Numbered from the stretch's first letter, positions 28,062 through 62,292 are shown. The stretch: DNA of 64,000 bases from an uncultured Thermoleophilia bacterium (GCA_963715985.1 CAVQSP010000013.1:256001-320000); one strand, 5' to 3'. The notes: generated from the sequence alone by a model not told the origin. Made by a program: numbers and translations.

Positions 28062-29494
28062 TGGAGCTCAGCGTCCGTGTCCTCTCCGAGGACGAGAAGG
28101 CGCAGATCCACGAGCGCACGCTGCGGGTGCTGCACTCCACCGGCGTGCGCTGCGATACCGCCGAGGGGCGCCGCCTCCTGGCGGCGGCCGGCGCCCAGGT
28201 GGACGAGGCCACTCGCATGGTGCGCTTCCCGCCCGAGCTCGTGGAGAGCCTTCTCGCCCAAGCCACGCGCCGTTTCACCCTGCACGGGCGCCGTCCGGAC
28301 TGGAGCTTCTCCGTCAACGACGGCGCCTTCACGCTGCTCGCCGACGGCGGGGCCACGGCCGTGTTCGACACGCAGACCGGCGAGCGCCGCCCCACCACGC
28401 ATCACGACTGGCTCGCTGCCACGCGCGTCCTGGACGCGCTCGACGACGTGGGTCTGTACTGGTGCCCCATCGAGTACGACGCCGACTACGAGCGCGCCGG
28501 CGGTCTCGTGCGCTACTTCACCGACGTCTTCGCCACGTTCGGCAAGCACGTGCAGGATTCGTTCGGCACGCCCGCGCTGGCGCCGTGGCTCAAGGAAGTG
28601 CTGGACATCGTGTTCGGCGGGCGCGAGGCGGTGCGCGAGCGCCTGCCCTTCTCGTTCCTCATCACGCCGGCGTCGCCGCTCACCATCGAGCACGACTACA
28701 CGCAGTCGTGGCTGGAGCTCAGGGACTACGGCCTGCCCGTGGCCGTCATGCCCATGCCGCTGCAGGGCGCCACGGCGCCCGGCAGCCGCCTCGGCACGCT
28801 GCTCGCGGCCAACTGCGAGACGGTGGCCACGCTCTGCCTCGTGCAGGCGGCGGCGCCGGGCACGCCGGTGTTCTACGCGCCGGTGGTGGCCACCATGGAC
28901 CCGCGCACCGGCCTGTACGCGGCGGGCGCCATCGAGCACGCCGTGCTCTGCGTGGCCGCCACGGAGATGGCGCGCTACTACGGCCTGCCGGCCGAGTCGT
29001 CCGGCCTCTGCACGCAGACCTGGGAGCCGGGCATCCAGACGGCGTGGGAGAAGGCCGACAGCGGCCTGCTGGTCGCGCTCGCCGGACCCGACGTGCTCGT
29101 CGGCCCGGGTCTGCTCGGCGGCGCCACCGTGCTCTGCCTCGAGCAGATCGTGCTGGACGTGGAGGTCATGCGCCGGGCCCGTCAGGGGCGCACCGGCGTC
29201 CCCGTGCGCGACGATCTGTGGCTCGACGACGTCCTCGCGGAGGTGGGCCCCTGCGGCTCCTTCCTGGGGCAACGGTCCACGCGCACCGGCCTGCGCTCCG
29301 GCGAGTGGTGGCTGAGCGACTTCGGCGTACAGGGCAGCTGGGACGCGTGGAAGGCGGCGGGTGCGCCGGACGCGGTCGCCGCCGCCCACGAGCGTGTGCA
29401 AGGCCTGCTCGACACGCAGGTCTCCCTGCCCTTCACCGACGACCAGACCAGGGCGCTCGCCGCGCTGCAGCGCCGCGCCGACCTGGCCGGCTGA
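28061..29494 (+). CDS. MttB-superfamily methyltransferase without pyrrolysine (MtgB-like)
   Basis: LSEDEKAQIHERTLRVL, SPLT, GATAP, MDPRTG, ARYYGLP; the Pyl-equivalent region reads SSGLCTQT with no amber codon. Confidence 0.88.
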   Translation: MELSVRVLSEDEKAQIHERTLRVLHSTGVRCDTAEGRRLLAAAGAQVDEATRMVRFPPELVESLLAQATRRFTLHGRRPDWSFSVNDGAFTLLADGGATAVFDTQTGERRPTTHHDWLAATRVLDALDDVGLYWCPIEYDADYERAGGLVRYFTDVFATFGKHVQDSFGTPALAPWLKEVLDIVFGGREAVRERLPFSFLITPASPLTIEHDYTQSWLELRDYGLPVAVMPMPLQGATAPGSRLGTLLAANCETVATLCLVQAAAPGTPVFYAPVVATMDPRTGLYAAGAIEHAVLCVAATEMARYYGLPAESSGLCTQTWEPGIQTAWEKADSGLLVALAGPDVLVGPGLLGGATVLCLEQIVLDVEVMRRARQGRTGVPVRDDLWLDDVLAEVGPCGSFLGQRSTRTGLRSGEWWLSDFGVQGSWDAWKAAGAPDAVAAAHERVQGLLDTQVSLPFTDDQTRALAALQRRADLAG

Positions 29495-50671: not shown

Positions 50672-52141
50672 GTGAAACGCAATCTGTTCGCCGGCCAGCG
50701 CCGCAGCGGCGGTATCGGCCTTTCAATGTTCACCGACGACGAGATCCACATGATCCACCGTGGCACGCTCGTCGTCCTCGAGCGCACCGGCATCTGGGTC
50801 GAGCTCGACGAGGCGCTGGACATCTTCAGCGACGGCGGCTGCAAGGTCGACCGCGAGACGCACATCGTCAAGATCCCCCCGCACGTGGTGGAGGACGCCG
50901 TCGCCAGCGCCCCCGAGTCCATCGCGCTGTGTGGCCGCGACCCGAGGAACGACATCCTCATCGAGGCGGGGCGCGTGGGCTTCAGCAACTTCGGCGAGGG
51001 CATCAAGGTCATCGACCCCACCAGCGGCGAGCTGCGCGACTCCACGAAGAAGGACCTCGGCGACATCGCCCGGCTGGTCGACGCCCTGCCGGACATCGAC
51101 GTCTTCGAGATGGCCGTGGTCTCCGGCGACAAGCCCCCGGAGACGTTCTCGCTGCACAACCACGAGGCGGCCATCGTCAATCAGACGAAGCCCATCTCCG
51201 GCGGGGCGCAGGACGGCCGCGCCGTGCACACTACGGTGGAGATGCTGGCCGCCGTGCAGGGCAGCGAGGACGCCGTGCGCGAGCGGCCGATGATGATCAT
51301 GGGCACCTGCCCCGTGAGCCCGCTCAAGCTGGTCAAGGACTTCTGCGAGATCATCATCGAGGCGGCGCGCGTGGGCCTGCCCTCCTGCGTGCTCAGTATG
51401 GCCATGGCCGGCGGCTCGTCGCCGGTCACGCTGGCCGGCACGCTGGTGACGCACAACGCCGAGGTGCTCGCCGGCATCGTGCTCGGCCAGCTCACCGAGC
51501 GCGGCAGCAAGGTGCTCTACGGCTCGTCCACCACGGCTATGGACCTGCGGCTGGTCACTGCCTCCGTCGGCTCGCCGGAGTGCGCCATGATCAGCGCCGG
51601 TGCGGCCCAGCTCGCCCGACAGTACCGCCTTCCGAGTTACATCGCGGGGATGTAGGGCGACGGCAAGACCAGTGACGTGCAGACCGGTCACGAGAAGACC
51701 CTCACGGCTCTGATGGCGGCGTTGGCAGGGACCAACCTCATCTACGGGTCGGGAATGATCGAGTCGGGCGTCACCTTCGATTTCGCGCAACTGGTCATCG
51801 ACGACGAGATCGCGCGCATGGTCAAGCAGGTGGTCGGCGGCGTGCGCGTGGACGACGAGTCGCTGGCGGTGGACGACATCGCGAGCGTGGGCTCGTTCGG
51901 CGACTTCCTCAGTCTGGACGCGACGATGGCGCACATGCGCGAGCAGTCGCAGCCGCGGCTCATGGACCGGCGCGTGCGCGAGGAGTGGGAGGAGGGCGGC
52001 AGCCTGGGCATGTACGACAAGGCCCTGGCCAAGGCCCGCGACCTGCTCGAGAACCACCACCCGGAGCCGCTGCCCGACGACGTGCGGCAGCGGGTCCGCG
52101 ACATCGTGGAGCGCGAGGACAGGGCGGCCGGCAGGGCCTGA
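50672..52141 (+). CDS. mttB: Trimethylamine--corrinoid methyltransferase with pyrrolysine (in-frame TAG at 51653-51655, codon 328; 489 aa)
   Basis: ORFs 50672-51655 and 51677-52141 are in the same frame; LPSYIAGM*GDGKTSDVQTGHEKTLT matches the MttB Pyl motif; CPVSPL, SPVTLAG, YGSSTT, IYGSGMIE. Confidence 0.93.
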
Positions 52142-56392: not shown

Positions 56393-56514
56393 GAGAGCTC
56401 CCAGGTCGGTTTGTGCTGTGTGGTGCAAGTGTGGGGGCGGCGAGCGCGGCCGGTCAACCGGGCGCCGCGCCTGCTAGGATGAGGCCGGAGCTGCCGCGAC
56501 GAGAGGGGACGACG

Positions 56515-57900
56515 ATGGAGACCAGGGTGCCCACCCGCATGGGCGACGGGTTCATGGTCGAGATGACGCGCAGCGAGCTGCGCGCCGACATCGAAGCGGC
56601 CACGCAGGAGGCGGCGCGCAAGGCAAAGACGCCGCCGCTCGCCGCCGCCGAGCAGGAGCACCTGCTGGACATCTACGCCTCGCGGGCCGCCTTCACCGCC
56701 GTGGACATCGGCGACCAGGTGGTGCTGAGCTGCGACGGCGGCGGCAGCAAGATGACCGGCACCGACATCCAGGACCTGCTGGAGAGCGAGCAGCGGCTGG
56801 GCCAGGACATCCTCGAGCTCTGGCACATCGAGTACAGCTACAAGGCCATCAAGACGATCCTGCCGTTCCAGCAGCAGGTGATGCAGAACGCCCAGCTGAT
56901 GCTGACGGCGCCCATCCAGTACGGGGCGCAGCCCAATCTCGCCTTCTACAGCCGGCCGGACGGCCCGTGCCCCAACTGGTTCGAACTGCTGCCGCGCGGC
57001 GACATCGCCGGGTCACGCGCGGCCGTGGAAGAAGCCATGGAATACGCGACGCAGGACTTCGTGTACGTCGCCGACGGCATGCTCGAGGCCGGCGCCGACG
57101 GCGTGGACTTCGACACCACCGGCGGCGCCGGCGACGCCGATCTCTTCAGCACGCTGCGTGCCGTGCGCCACGTGCGCGAGCGGTACCCGGAGGCCGGCAT
57201 CGAATTGGGCATGGCCGGCGAGTTCGTCATCGGCGTGCACGGCGAGCTCACCTGGGAGGGCACCCGGCTCGCCGGCATGTGGCCGCGGCAGCAGCTCGAG
57301 GTGGCGCAGGACGCCGGCGTCACCATCTTCGGGCCGGCGGTCAACATCCGCAGCGGGCGCTCGTGCTGCTGGAACACGGCCTACTCGCTCACGGTCATCA
57401 AGCCGTGCATGGAGGTGGCTCGCATCCCCGTCCACGTCAACGTGGGGGAGGGCGTGTGCGGCGTCCCCGTCAACGGGTATCCGGGGGAGGACGCCGTCTC
57501 GCGGGCGGCCAAGGCACACGTCGACATCCTGCGCTGCGACGGCTTGTAGGTGGGGTCGGGTGACTCCAGAGGCATGGACGTCACTCACGCGCTCGCCGCG
57601 GGCATGGGCGGCATGCGCACGGCCGGAGACCTGGTCGCGCGCCTGCAGATGTCACGCGGGATGCGGCTCGAGGAGGCGAAGCGGACCGTGGCCGGCAAGC
57701 TCGGCTGCACGGTCCGCGACCTCAGCGACAGCTACGCCATGGAGCAGCTGCGCGGCGAGCTGGGCCTGGGGCGGATCCTCGACCACTCCAATCTGCACCC
57801 CGGCAAGCCGAACGCGATGAGCGCCAAGTTCCGCATCGCCGAGCTGCTCGGCCTGCGGATCAACTCGGTGGAGCGCTTTCGGGAGCTGGCGGGGCTGTAG
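56515..57900 (+). CDS. mtbB: Dimethylamine--corrinoid methyltransferase with pyrrolysine (in-frame TAG at 57547-57549, codon 345; 461 aa)
   Basis: TRMGDG, YSYKAIK, YGAQPNL, DFDTTGGAGDAD, GMAGEFVIG, RIPVHVN; CDGL*VGSGD...GMGGMRTAGDLVAR matches the MtbB Pyl motif; ORF 57550-57900 is in frame. Confidence 0.93.
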
Positions 57901-58396
57901 CGCTCGCCGCCGCGGCGAGCGCCGAGCGCCGCATGATCGCGCCCACGGCCACGGCGGCGACGCCGATGGGCACGAGCAGGATGCCGGTGAGGAGCGTCAC
58001 GTAGAGGCCGATGCCGGGCCGGTACATCTTGACCATGGAGTCCGCGGCGGAGATCGCCTCCGCGGCGAAGACGACGCCGGCCACGACCACCCCGGCGGCG
58101 AGCGCCATGGTGACGCGCCGCGGTCCAAGGATCAGGAGCAGGGCGGCGATCGCCATCGCTCCCAGCGCCGCCCCGAGCACCGGCGGCCCCCACTGGGTCT
58201 GCAGCACGCCCACCACGCCGGCGGGCTTGGAGAGGCTGAAGTTGACGTACTGGGCCGTGTACTCGTTGGCCCAGGGCAGGAAGACGGCCACGAGGCCCGC
58301 CGCCCCGCCCGCCATGATGAGCACGGCGTAGCCGATCCAGTCGCCTCTCGCGAAGCGGTGTCTGCGGAAGCGGGGTGTGCGCATCGTCCTTGTCAT
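57860..58396 (-). CDS. Four-TM membrane protein overlapping the mtbB 3' end
   Basis: VFLPW, GIGLYVTLLTG; hydrophobic helices. Confidence 0.65.
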   Translation of the reverse strand: MTRTMRTPRFRRHRFARGDWIGYAVLIMAGGAAGLVAVFLPWANEYTAQYVNFSLSKPAGVVGVLQTQWGPPVLGAALGAMAIAALLLILGPRRVTMALAAGVVVAGVVFAAEAISAADSMVKMYRPGIGLYVTLLTGILLVPIGVAAVAVGAIMRRSALAAAASATAPPAPESAPPS

Positions 58397-58532
58397 CGGC
58401 AGGTTCCTGTTCCGGCTGATACCGCGGCCGGCGGCGAGCCGAAACGCGGGGAGGGCATGGGCCGGGCGACGGATCGCTGCAGGCCCGGCCCGGACCGGCC
58501 GATAGTGGGGGAGACTACCACGGAGGACGACG

Positions 58533-58910
58533 ATGAGACGTTTGACGACAGGCCTGCTCGCGGCGCTGGTTGTGCTGGCCGCGGCGGCGGCGCTGGGCGC
58601 CTGCGGCAGCAAGGACATCCAGACTCCCACGGGCACCATCGACATCGCCAAGGACCAGGCGGCCAAGAGTGAGATCATGCTGGTGAAGACGGGTATCGCC
58701 GCCCATGTGGCGATGAACGGGGCGGCGCCGCCCAACGCCTCGCAGGAGGTGCTCGGGTCCTTCGTCAACCCGTGGCCCAAGAACCCGTGGACGCAGGCCC
58801 CCATGAAGCAGGGCAAGACGGAGGGCGACATCGTCTACGCGCCGGGAGCAGGCACGGCATACACGCTCGGCGTCGTGCTCTCGGACGGCAGCGTGTACAA
58901 CGCGCCGTGA
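58533..58910 (+). CDS. Lipoprotein with one pilin/GspG-like WPxNPWT domain
   Basis: Lipobox LGAC; AKDQAAKSEI...WPKNPWTQAPM..GDIVY; GGAGG RBS. Confidence 0.75.
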   Translation: MRRLTTGLLAALVVLAAAAALGACGSKDIQTPTGTIDIAKDQAAKSEIMLVKTGIAAHVAMNGAAPPNASQEVLGSFVNPWPKNPWTQAPMKQGKTEGDIVYAPGAGTAYTLGVVLSDGSVYNAP

Positions 58911-60223: not shown

Positions 60224-61600
60224 TCAGGCGCCGATCAGCTTCTTGACGAGGGTGGCTCGCTTGCTGGGTCGCCCCGTGCGCACCTCCGCGTCGTCGGCGC
60301 TGCCCATCGCCTTGAGAGCCGCGTTGACCGCGAGCCAGCGCAGCGGTTCGGGCTCCCAGGGCTTGGAGCGATGGTTCACCCACGGCAGCTCAGTGAGCTC
60401 GGTGGAGTGTGCGAGGATCAGGTCGCACAGGGTGCGGCCGGCGAGGTTGGTGGTGGCCACGCCGTCGCCGATGTAGGCCCCCGCCCATGCCATGCCGGTG
60501 GCGCGGTCGAGGCCCACCGAGGAGTACCAGTCGCGAGGCGCCGCGATGGCGCCGCCCCAGTGGTGCGTGACCTCGGCGTCGCCGATGGCCGGGAACAGCT
60601 CGCCGAGCAGGGCGCGGAGGTGGTCCCGCACCAAGGGGTCGCGTTCGTAGTCCTCGCTGAGCCTGGACCCGAAGTGGTACGGGGCGCCGCGGCCGCCGAT
60701 GGCGATGCGCCCGTCCGCGGTGTGCATGGCGTAGAAGATGAGGAAGCGGAAGTCGCCGAACACCTCGCGGCCGCTCCAGCCGACCTCCCCCCAGAAGGTG
60801 TCCGGCAGGGGCTCCGTGCCGATCATCAGCGAGTAGATCGGTATCACTGTGCGCTCGAAGCCCGGGAGCTCGGGCGTGAACGCCTCGGTGGCGCGCACCA
60901 CGACCTCGGCGTGCACCTCCCCGAAGGGCGTGACCGCGCGGTGCGGCTCGAGAAGGGTGACCGGGGTGCGCTCGTAGATGGGCACCCCAAGGCGCTCAAC
61001 GGCGCCGGCGAGCCCGCGCGCCAGGCGCGCCGGGTCGACGGCGGCGCCGTGCGGCGTGTACCCCGCGCCCAGACACCCGGCGACCCTGATGCGCTCGCGC
61101 ATCTCCGCCGCGCCGAGCTGGCGGTAGTCCGCCTCGCCGAAGCCCCAGGAGCGCTCCCACTCGACGGCCTCGCGGAGGCGGAGGAGCTGCACCGGCGTCA
61201 GGGCGAGGTCGAGCTGACCGCCCATGCAGAAGCGCGCGTCGATGCTCTCTTCGTCCACGACGCGCGCGATCTCCCTCACGGTGGCGTGGAGCGCGCGCTG
61301 CTGGTCGATCACCTTCTGGCGCCCGTGACGTGCCGCCGCCTCCTCACGCGACCCCGGGAACGTGGTGTGGCACCAGCCCCCATTGCGGCCTGAAGCTCCG
61401 AACCCGGCGATCTCGCGCTCGAGCACGGCGATGCGCAGGTGCGGGTCGGCCTTGCGGAGGTAGTAGGCGGTCCAGAGTCCGGTGAACCCGGCGCCGACGA
61501 CGGCGACGTCCACGTCCAGAGGGCCGGGCAGGGAAGGGCGGGGCGTGAGCTCGCCGGGGACGCCGTCGAGCCACAGGCTGCGTGCGCGGTAGTCGGTCAT
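60224..61600 (-). CDS. FAD-dependent amine oxidoreductase (PuuB/DadA family)
   Basis: SLWL, VGAGFTGLWTAYYL, GASGRNGG, WGG, YIGDGV. Confidence 0.88.
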   Translation of the reverse strand: MTDYRARSLWLDGVPGELTPRPSLPGPLDVDVAVVGAGFTGLWTAYYLRKADPHLRIAVLEREIAGFGASGRNGGWCHTTFPGSREEAAARHGRQKVIDQQRALHATVREIARVVDEESIDARFCMGGQLDLALTPVQLLRLREAVEWERSWGFGEADYRQLGAAEMRERIRVAGCLGAGYTPHGAAVDPARLARGLAGAVERLGVPIYERTPVTLLEPHRAVTPFGEVHAEVVVRATEAFTPELPGFERTVIPIYSLMIGTEPLPDTFWGEVGWSGREVFGDFRFLIFYAMHTADGRIAIGGRGAPYHFGSRLSEDYERDPLVRDHLRALLGELFPAIGDAEVTHHWGGAIAAPRDWYSSVGLDRATGMAWAGAYIGDGVATTNLAGRTLCDLILAHSTELTELPWVNHRSKPWEPEPLRWLAVNAALKAMGSADDAEVRTGRPSKRATLVKKLIGA

Positions 61601-61694
61601 CGTGGGCTCCTTGGGGGGTCGGCGGCATCCTACCAGAGCCTGCCGGTGGCACGTTTGAGCGCTGGAACAACTCCCCCGAAAGCAGGTGATCGCC

Positions 61695-62292
61695 ATGAAC
61701 ACGACACGGTTCGAAGAGGCCTACCGCGGCACGCCCCCGTGGGACATCGGACGGCACCAGCCGGTGTTCGAGGCGCTCGCCGAGGCCGGCGACATCGTCG
61801 CGCCGGTGCTGGACGCAGGGTGCGGCACCGGCGAGAACGCGCTCTATCTGGCCGCTCGCGGCCTGGAAGTGGTGGGCGTCGACGCCGTCGAGACGGCCGT
61901 GGCGGCCGCGCGGGCCAAAGCGGCCGCGCGCGGCCTGACGGCCGGAGTTCCTCGTCCACGACGCTCTCAGCTTGGGCGATCTTGGCCAACGTTACGCCAC
62001 GGTCATCGACTCGGGCCTGTTCCACACCCTCGAGGACGACGAGCGCGAGCGCTACGTGGACGCGCTGGCCGCCGTCATCAAGCCGGGCGGCCGCTACTTC
62101 GTGCTGTGCTTCAGCGAGCTCGAGACCGGCAGCGGCGGTCCGCGGCGCGTCACGCAGGCGGAGCTGCGCGAGTGCTTCGACAGGCCGCCCTTCCGCGTGC
62201 TCTCCATCGAGGCCGCCGCGTTCGCCTCCAACGCTGGGGGCGGCGGCCGCAAGGCGTGGCTGGCGCGGGTGGAGCGTCTGCCGGGCGTCTGA
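61695..62292 (+). CDS. Class I SAM-dependent methyltransferase; frameshift near 61950
   Basis: PPWDIG, LDAGCGTG in frame 1; DSGLFH, KPGG...LCFS in frame 2. Confidence 0.8.

Follow-up and report, generated by a model that had tools for sequence, protein, structure and literature searches.

The window, a 64,000-nucleotide stretch of contig C13 (G000:C13:256001-320000) from the metagenome-assembled genome (MAG) of an uncultured Thermoleophilia bacterium, contains at positions 56515-57900 what is very probably one intact gene for a pyrrolysine (Pyl)-containing methylamine:corrinoid methyltransferase ('MT1' enzyme) of the MtbB family. The open reading frame (ORF) is located on the plus strand and extends from ATG 56515, a start codon common to the orthologues, to TAG 57898-57900. 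It comprises 461 sense or Pyl codons. The sole internal stop of the frame is the TAG at 57547-57549 (codon 345), in the context LRCDGL-TAG-VGSGDSRGMDVTHALAAGMGGMRTAGDLVAR, with a longer peptide context of LRCDGL-TAG-VGSGDSRGMDVTH...GMGGMRTAGDLVAR. Judged from the sequence, the corresponding UAG is almost certainly read as Pyl. It is followed by exactly 116 sense codons (57550-57897), which form a C-terminal segment made only with UAG read-through. A first-pass annotation of the window had reported this TAG, the 116 codons behind it and the adjoining peptide strings, all of which were correct when the frame was read again. A putative Shine-Dalgarno-like AGGGGA, recognized by reading the sequence, is positioned at 56504-56509 (+), 5 nt upstream of the ATG. 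The G+C content of the window is approximately 70% throughout.

The assignment to the MtbB family made in the first-pass annotation is borne out by profile alignment. The read-through protein matches the full length of Pfam PF09505 (Dimeth_Pyl) with 505.3 bits (cutoff 25 bits; residues 6-457, profile positions 4-462 of 463). When the protein is split at the TAG, each segment still matches PF09505, at profile positions 4-353 and 355-462, the latter with 126.6 bits on its own. Since the two halves end at 353 and start at 355, the TAG corresponds to a single missing profile column. It also aligns with the TAG of all the paralogues, and is thus located in the family's Pyl column, as had been claimed. 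The match to the NCBIfam equivalog TIGR02368 passes narrowly, with 375.9 bits against a cutoff of 369.1.

The AlphaFold2 model of the protein, calculated from a 36-row alignment, has a predicted local distance difference test score of 90.8 and a predicted template modelling score of 0.92. The predicted fold is a TIM barrel whose final strand contains residue 345. The closest solved folds are barrels of cobalamin-linked methyltransferases, namely the homocysteine domain of MetH (Z 18.3, root mean square deviation 3.4, 247 aligned) and the Methanosarcina mazei methyltransferase 4ay7 (Z 18.1), with a modest margin over generic TIM barrels (Z 13-15). Foldseek alone returns weak generic TIM-barrel matches (best BHMT, TM 0.35-0.41). 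In the PDB, a search by sequence yielded no structure of an MtbB (best E 0.14, irrelevant).

Decoding of the internal UAG

The internal TAG is conserved among 53 related loci fetched from species-representative genomes, which are nearly throughout MAGs of uncultured Thermoleophilia (Actinomycetota). All 48 loci that span the site, 47 independent orthologue assemblies and one paralogue, have TAG at the Pyl column; the remaining five are cut short of the column by contig ends. The internal TAG aligns with the end of 344-residue database entries. Among the matches listed, nearly all of the at least 120 homologues in a 5.8-billion-protein collection end at 336-346 residues, because gene callers stopped at this TAG.

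The codons downstream of the TAG are under purifying selection as strong as that upstream. In 28 gap-free orthologue sequences (378 pairs), the median ratio of nonsynonymous to synonymous divergence (dN/dS) is 0.148 for codons 346-461 and 0.186 for codons 1-344. Synonymous divergence (pS) is equal in the two segments (0.31 and 0.30, respectively), and no extra stops or frameshifts are present downstream in any of the 28 sequences. By both its separate profile match and its dN/dS, the segment after the TAG is conserved with the MtbB C-terminus. The TAG might instead be a true stop, leaving a pseudogene or a 344-residue protein with an untranslated remnant, since TAG is common as a stop genome-wide (19% of crude ORFs) and public gene callers annotate the 344-residue product. 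However, the post-TAG codons would then not be expected to match the family profile with 126.6 bits, to evolve with a dN/dS of 0.148 free of stops and frameshifts, or to follow a TAG retained in 48 of 48 loci in a genome that encodes Pyl machinery on the same contig. We consider a true stop very improbable.

Still less probable, to the point of being negligible, is that the TAG arose by sequencing or assembly error, or that the contig is a contamination from a Pyl-using organism. The contamination estimate of the MAG is 7.3%, and indels are visible in other genes. Nevertheless, an error would have had to place the same codon in 47 independent orthologue assemblies and one paralogue, and every other full-length paralogue of the same genome also has a TAG. 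Contamination is at odds with the G+C content of 69-71% in all 22 contigs and with the presence of both the window and the pyl genes on contig C13. The earlier judgement that sequencing error is unlikely therefore stands, given the recurrence of the TAG in the related loci and the neighboring mttB gene, which is also of the Pyl type.

The machinery for Pyl that the first-pass annotation expected in the genome is encoded approximately 240 kb from the window, with pylB, pylC, pylD, tRNA-Pyl, pylSn and pylSc all on contig C13. The matches of pylC (316.8 bits), pylD (198.6 bits), pylSn (123.5 bits) and pylSc (317.1 bits) are above their cutoffs. The gene for tRNA-Pyl, with the anticodon CUA (cta in DNA), is located directly 3' of pylD. 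The pylB match at L067:3812-4762 has 304.8 bits, relative to a cutoff of 348.2, and covers profile positions 5-252 of 347. Together these genes make up a complete Pyl system, with the split pylSn/pylSc arrangement of the bacterial type. Within the pyl cluster, a B12-binding_2 (corrinoid protein) match is positioned between pylSn and pylSc (G000:C13:558325-558540, +). The contig also carries a tRNA-Sec(UCA) gene at G000:C13:139538-139635, and UGA is probably also decoded as selenocysteine in this organism.

Several observations weigh against the interpretation of the gene as a functional Pyl-type MtbB. The match to TIGR02368 exceeds the cutoff by only 7 bits, the lowest value among the eight intact paralogues. 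Thirteen positions of the protein are fixed in the orthologue group to residues that are absent from 13 other Pyl-type rows of the alignment. The profile match of pylB is partial and below the curated cutoff. As far as can be told from the sequence, the shortfall may be caused by an assembly frameshift; if the defect were real, the synthesis of pyrrolysine would be compromised. The MAG is 88.8% complete with 7.3% contamination. No corrinoid-protein gene was detected among the ORFs of the 64-kb window or by tblastn, and the 53 related loci likewise gave no tblastn match to one within approximately 6 kb. The genome shows no depletion of TAG, which ends 249 of 1294 (19%) crude long coding-like ORFs, and mtbB itself ends in TAG. 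On the supporting side, contigs of three RNA libraries, from three studies, cover 21-24 of the 30 gene bins at an identity of at least 88%; no weight is given to the parts of the gene left uncovered. One contig (X23, record 32) spans the TAG, with flanks of 89 and 116 nt. RNA libraries can, however, contain DNA, and contigs cannot show expression level, so that these contigs are a hint, and weak support, for the expression of mtbB.

Because TAG is still an ordinary stop in the genome, the decoding of UAG is ambiguous rather than reassigned. Since the mtbB terminator is also TAG, a single mRNA contains two UAGs, 351 nt apart, of which the first would have to be read and the second should terminate. 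The next in-frame stop is TGA 57934-57936, 11 codons beyond the terminal TAG. Of 45 related loci, which as kin are not independent, 28 terminate in TAG and 14 in TGA, and three have a sense codon at this position. Beyond the terminal TAG, the next stop of the related loci is 8-189 codons further, with no conserved extension. The share of TAG terminators in the related mtbB loci (28 of 45) can be compared to approximately 19% TAG among crude ORF stops genome-wide. By analogy, competition of tRNA-Pyl with the release factor at UAG is most likely, as described in the accessible parts of reports on other Pyl users (PMC13663744; bioRxiv 10.1101/2025.06.11.659114).

Searches with Rfam, RNA folds and synonymous conservation found no trusted signal distinguishing the internal from the terminal UAG. 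The match to Rfam RF02509 (PYLIS_2, mtbB) begins exactly on the TAG, with 57.4 bits and six non-standard pairs in the first stem, and a match to RF02510 likewise begins on the TAG of the upstream mttB. The single-sequence fold 3' of the UAG has a z of -2.8 over 120 nt. A local hairpin at 57559-57585 (+), 12 nt 3' of the UAG, is shared by the 28 orthologues and kept in the orthologue group only. Its 9-bp stem is shifted relative to the Rfam stem and has zero compensatory changes. Four wobble positions in the stem are invariant, but were picked post hoc. No common hairpin is present in ten other paralogues (z -1.66 to +1.47), and no synonymous-site constraint was detected after the UAG, where 9-codon windows from codons 346-350 rank 86-132 of 217. 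No PYLIS insertion element is claimed here, as the folds gave neither covariation nor a hairpin common to the paralogues. The RF02509 score is, as judged from the alignment, accounted for by coding-sequence conservation. The strongest synonymous-site conservation of the gene is located elsewhere, in codons 97-107 (56803-56835), with a mean codon entropy of 0.056 compared to a gene mean of 0.545 in 28 orthologues. An RNA structure, or some other constraint overlapping the coding sequence, may be the cause.

The host genome and its MtbB paralogues

The host MAG is 4.35 Mb in size, and DNA near-identical to it is found mainly in wetland and soil metagenome runs. The search of the genome that the first-pass annotation had proposed, for mtmB, corrinoid proteins, RamA-type activases, methyltransferases and Wood-Ljungdahl genes, returned members of each group. 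The genome contains 15 matches to PF09505, corresponding to approximately 11 MtbB loci. Eight full-length MtbB matches hold one TAG each, and three more loci are split by frameshifts. MTTB-family matches number 89, of which 11 contain one TAG. Two MtmB genes are of the Pyl type, and six further matches are read as approximately five non-Pyl MtmB homologues. The genome further encodes 21 corrinoid B12-binding_2 domain matches, two RamA-type activases, seven URO-D-family and four pterin-binding methyltransferase matches, and, interrupted by a frameshift, a subunit of acetyl-CoA synthase. The expansion of corrinoid methyltransferases is extreme for a 4.35-Mb genome. A classical cluster at C14:688-700 kb has the order mtmB(Pyl)-mtmC-mtbB-mtbC, followed on the opposite strand by mttC-mttB(Pyl). 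A chain of demethylation from trimethylamine (TMA) through dimethylamine (DMA) to monomethylamine (MMA), feeding anaerobic C1 metabolism, had been suggested for this organism. The gene set for it is complete, and its operation is plausible at the level of gene content.

The intact MtbB paralogues differ in how closely they match the equivalog. The copies on C4 (C4:33570) and at C14:100418 have TIGR02368 scores of 525 and 498 bits, the C7 copy has 457 bits, and four C11 copies have 407-429 bits. The copy in the window is the lowest of the intact genes, with 376 bits. We use 'canonical' for a type defined by the TIGR02368 score, not by organism name. A quick IQ-TREE phylogeny of 54 rows and the 344 columns before the Pyl site, with SH-aLRT support only, was rooted on the non-Pyl MtbB homologue P0129. 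The window protein belongs to a 13-row clade (100% support) nested in a 45-row radiation (100% support) with a stem branch of 0.55. The radiation also includes the C7 copy and the four C11 copies. The C4 and C14:100418 copies cluster with P0124 outside the radiation, and P0128 and other representatives are positioned further out. According to BLAST, the frameshifted copy of the classical cluster (C14:693414) goes with C4, and the broken C9 and C10 copies go with the radiation. The genome therefore has three canonical-like copies (C4, C14:100418, C14:693414) and eight radiation copies. The first-pass impression that the protein looks divergent is supported by both profile score and phylogeny, which place it as the lowest-scoring intact paralogue inside a lineage-specific clade. 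The accompanying idea of another secondary amine as substrate is a reasonable possibility.

Identities among the intact radiation copies are 54-69%, in comparison to 44-51% with the canonical-like copies and 39-42% with P0128. The window protein is 44-45% identical to the canonical-like copies of its own genome. Database orthologues exist separately for each subclade, from which it follows that the paralogues are of long standing and have been retained. MtbB is present in 63 of 301 sampled genomes of the class, with the host genome counted. Most belong to the family of the host, in which 53 of 55 sampled genomes have MtbB; one other family has it in 9 of 55, and ten other sampled families have none. 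Exactly one TAG is present in every MtbB match among the matches listed, and first-look candidates reach up to 19 per genome.

The 13 positions fixed in the orthologue group include P351S, which changes GDP to GDS directly after Pyl, as well as R290Y, M319V, N279R and G143A. All 22 aligned orthologues share the motif O-VGSGDSRGMDVTH without variation. Active sites of TIM barrels sit after the strand ends, and six of the 13 positions are at most 12 residues past the predicted ends of barrel strands, in a rough post hoc count.

One C11 paralogue differs in its 3' end. At G000:C11:37984-40900 (L068:3985-6954), the MtbB frame continues without a stop into a non-Pyl MttB-family protein. The junction peptide is ...RFKAHAGL-VL-MSPSQ..., encoded by CTCATGAGC, and a 1-nt indel at this site would restore an overlapping ATGA stop/start. 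Two explanations come into question for the junction, a genuine fusion of MtbB with MttB or an indel of the assembly. Candidate fusions in the relatives G226 and G186 were rejected, as they are ordinary C4-type genes with stops.

Partner genes and candidate substrates

The syntenic partner of mtbB in the window is a Pyl-type mttB gene at 50672-52141 (+), with a GTG start and an internal TAG at 51653-51655. It matches TIGR02369 with 692.4 bits, compared to a cutoff of 525. In 26 of the 53 related loci, a copy of this mttB with 77-88% identity is found on the upstream side of mtbB. Genome-wide, 10 of the 11 MtbB loci are, by coordinates, at most 5 kb from an MTTB-family match. Canonical mtbB adjoins mtbC, an arrangement that is typical of the family but not strictly defining. 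Two of the three canonical-like copies have a corrinoid gene within 5 kb, whereas none of the eight radiation copies, two of which are at contig ends, has one within 10 kb by coordinates.

A DAO-family FAD amine/amino-acid oxidoreductase is encoded at 60224-61702 (-), with a PF01266 match of 184 bits and a TIGR03329-like score of 217.7 bits, which is below the cutoff. This neighbor is present in 39 of the 53 related loci. Because the genomes are close relatives, synteny of the neighborhood alone does not prove a functional link. A second, related DAO-family oxidoreductase, at G000:C10:4834-6369 (-), has a TIGR03329-like score of 379 bits, also below the cutoff. Both DAO-family genes are close to an MtbB and MttB pair.

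The mechanism of the enzyme can be proposed from studied methylamine methyltransferases, as presented in the accessible part of PMC9842639. The tRNA-Pyl(CUA) would insert pyrrolysine at codon 345, in strand 8 of the TIM barrel. The nitrogen of the substrate amine would add to the pyrroline imine of Pyl345 and form a charged (cationic) adduct, the methyl group of which would be transferred to Co(I) of a corrinoid protein encoded elsewhere and acting in trans. A second methyltransferase (MT2) would deliver this methyl group to a C1 carrier of the folate type, with oxidized cobalt being repaired by a RamA-type activase. By analogy with these enzymes, the retention of Pyl argues for a substrate amine with a free lone pair, not a quaternary amine.

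Two classes of substrate come into consideration. With a syntenic MttB that has the appearance of a true TMA enzyme and would release DMA, the most straightforward choice is DMA itself. About as likely, in view of old and numerous paralogues with altered motifs, is some other small N-methyl amine, secondary or tertiary. From sequence, we therefore rate the choice between them as about even. To our knowledge, no MtbB-family substrate beyond mono-, di- and trimethylamine has been reported in open-access papers and preprints.

The paralogue may keep the chemistry and recoding of MtbB but have gained a new function, as the second step of a two-gene MttB and MtbB module in which an N-methyl amine, secondary or tertiary, different from free DMA is demethylated. 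This proposal departs from the main interpretation only in the substrate. Of the approximately 11 MtbB loci, one canonical-like copy belongs to the classical cluster, which can already handle DMA. The six intact radiation copies form a group with 100% support and 54-69% mutual identity, with separate orthologues for each subclade, and MtbB is kept in 53 of 55 sampled genomes of the family. The 13 clade-fixed substitutions, six of them near barrel-strand ends, and the pairing of the MtbB loci with MttB-family genes in place of nearby corrinoid genes in the radiation point in the same direction. On the other hand, the score of the partner MttB (692 bits, cutoff 525) is that of a textbook TMA enzyme, which yields DMA. 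Several MtbB isozymes with a single substrate coexist in Methanosarcina, and the paralogues may differ in corrinoid partner or regulation and not in substrate. The enrichment near strand ends is, as stated, a rough post hoc count. We judge a non-DMA substrate to be a real possibility, somewhat short of even.

We tentatively extend this proposal to the whole radiation, at a lower level of confidence. MtbB would then not be a one-substrate family: at least six old Pyl-retaining subclades would travel with MttB paralogues, each pair forming a two-step demethylation module that draws on a shared pool of corrinoid proteins. The modules would act on different tertiary-then-secondary amines, for which dimethylated amino alcohols, amino acids and polyamines are candidates. 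Under this multi-substrate scheme, the mttB and mtbB pair of the window, with its DAO-type neighbor, would count among these modules. A search for substrates of Pyl enzymes beyond mono-, di- and trimethylamine can take the divergent MtbB paralogues as candidates.

Relation to known systems and other genes of the window

Pyl-type mtbB is a textbook gene of Methanosarcina and is known in several anaerobic bacteria. The window gene resembles MtbB1-3/MtbC of Methanosarcina barkeri in belonging to the same family over its full length, with a single UAG at the corresponding column and a conserved C-terminal segment in common. The proposed chemistry, in which the amine reacts with the Pyl imine and the methyl group moves to Co(I), is also the same, according to the accessible part of PMC9842639. 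Unlike the M. barkeri system, the one described here has a bacterial split PylS and no adjacent mtbC, and its methyl acceptor is presumably a folate/Wood-Ljungdahl route, not coenzyme M. The window protein has GDS instead of GDP after Pyl and is approximately 40% identical to P0128, the top equivalog-scoring representative. The canonical-like copies share the family, Pyl column and organism with the window copy, but reach 498-525 bits in TIGR02368 in comparison to 376 (C4:33570, C14:100418, C14:693414). P0129, from a 50% representative library, is a full-length MtbB homologue with 34% identity and a TIGR02368 score of 379 bits. With Trp in the Pyl column and lacking a stop, it is a non-Pyl member of the MtbB family.

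The closest published counterparts are genes of Actinobacteriota MAGs from Stordalen Mire, which express Pyl-encoding mttB and mtbB (Ellenbogen et al. 2023, PMC10805028). As far as the accessible part of that study shows, these genes are from the same phylum, the same amber-truncated families and a similar wetland or soil habitat, and are treated as specific for tri- and dimethylamine. The same part describes neither a paralogue radiation nor MttB pairing nor an absence of corrinoid neighbors. A search of open-access papers and preprints found nothing specific on pyrrolysine in Thermoleophilia, on pylS in Actinobacteriota, on RBG-16-64-13, or on MtbB paralogs; PMC11264602 does not mention the trait, and PMC13695967 is not specific. 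The window gene is a real further example of the known Pyl-type mtbB, which, going by the accessible part of PMC10805028, is already in print for Actinobacteriota. Taken alone, it is one more case of an amber codon read as pyrrolysine that annotation pipelines cut in two.

Three features of the wider set were not found in the open-access search: the division of MtbB in Thermoleophilia between canonical-like copies and a radiation that retains Pyl, the pairing of radiation MtbB with MttB paralogues instead of corrinoid proteins, and the frequent TAG terminator of Pyl-type mtbB. A common actinobacterial family of wetlands and soils carries many Pyl-dependent methyltransferase paralogues and, because of them, would compete with methylotrophic methanogens for methylamines.

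A small membrane-protein gene without a family match is located at 57860-58831 (-). It is convergent with mtbB, and the 3' ends of the two genes overlap. Its product has a tblastn match in 38 of the 53 related loci, mostly directly downstream of mtbB. A third MttB-family gene of the window, at 28073-29476 (+; G000:C13:284073-285476), scores 216 bits, has no in-frame stop and sits between amino-acid permease genes.

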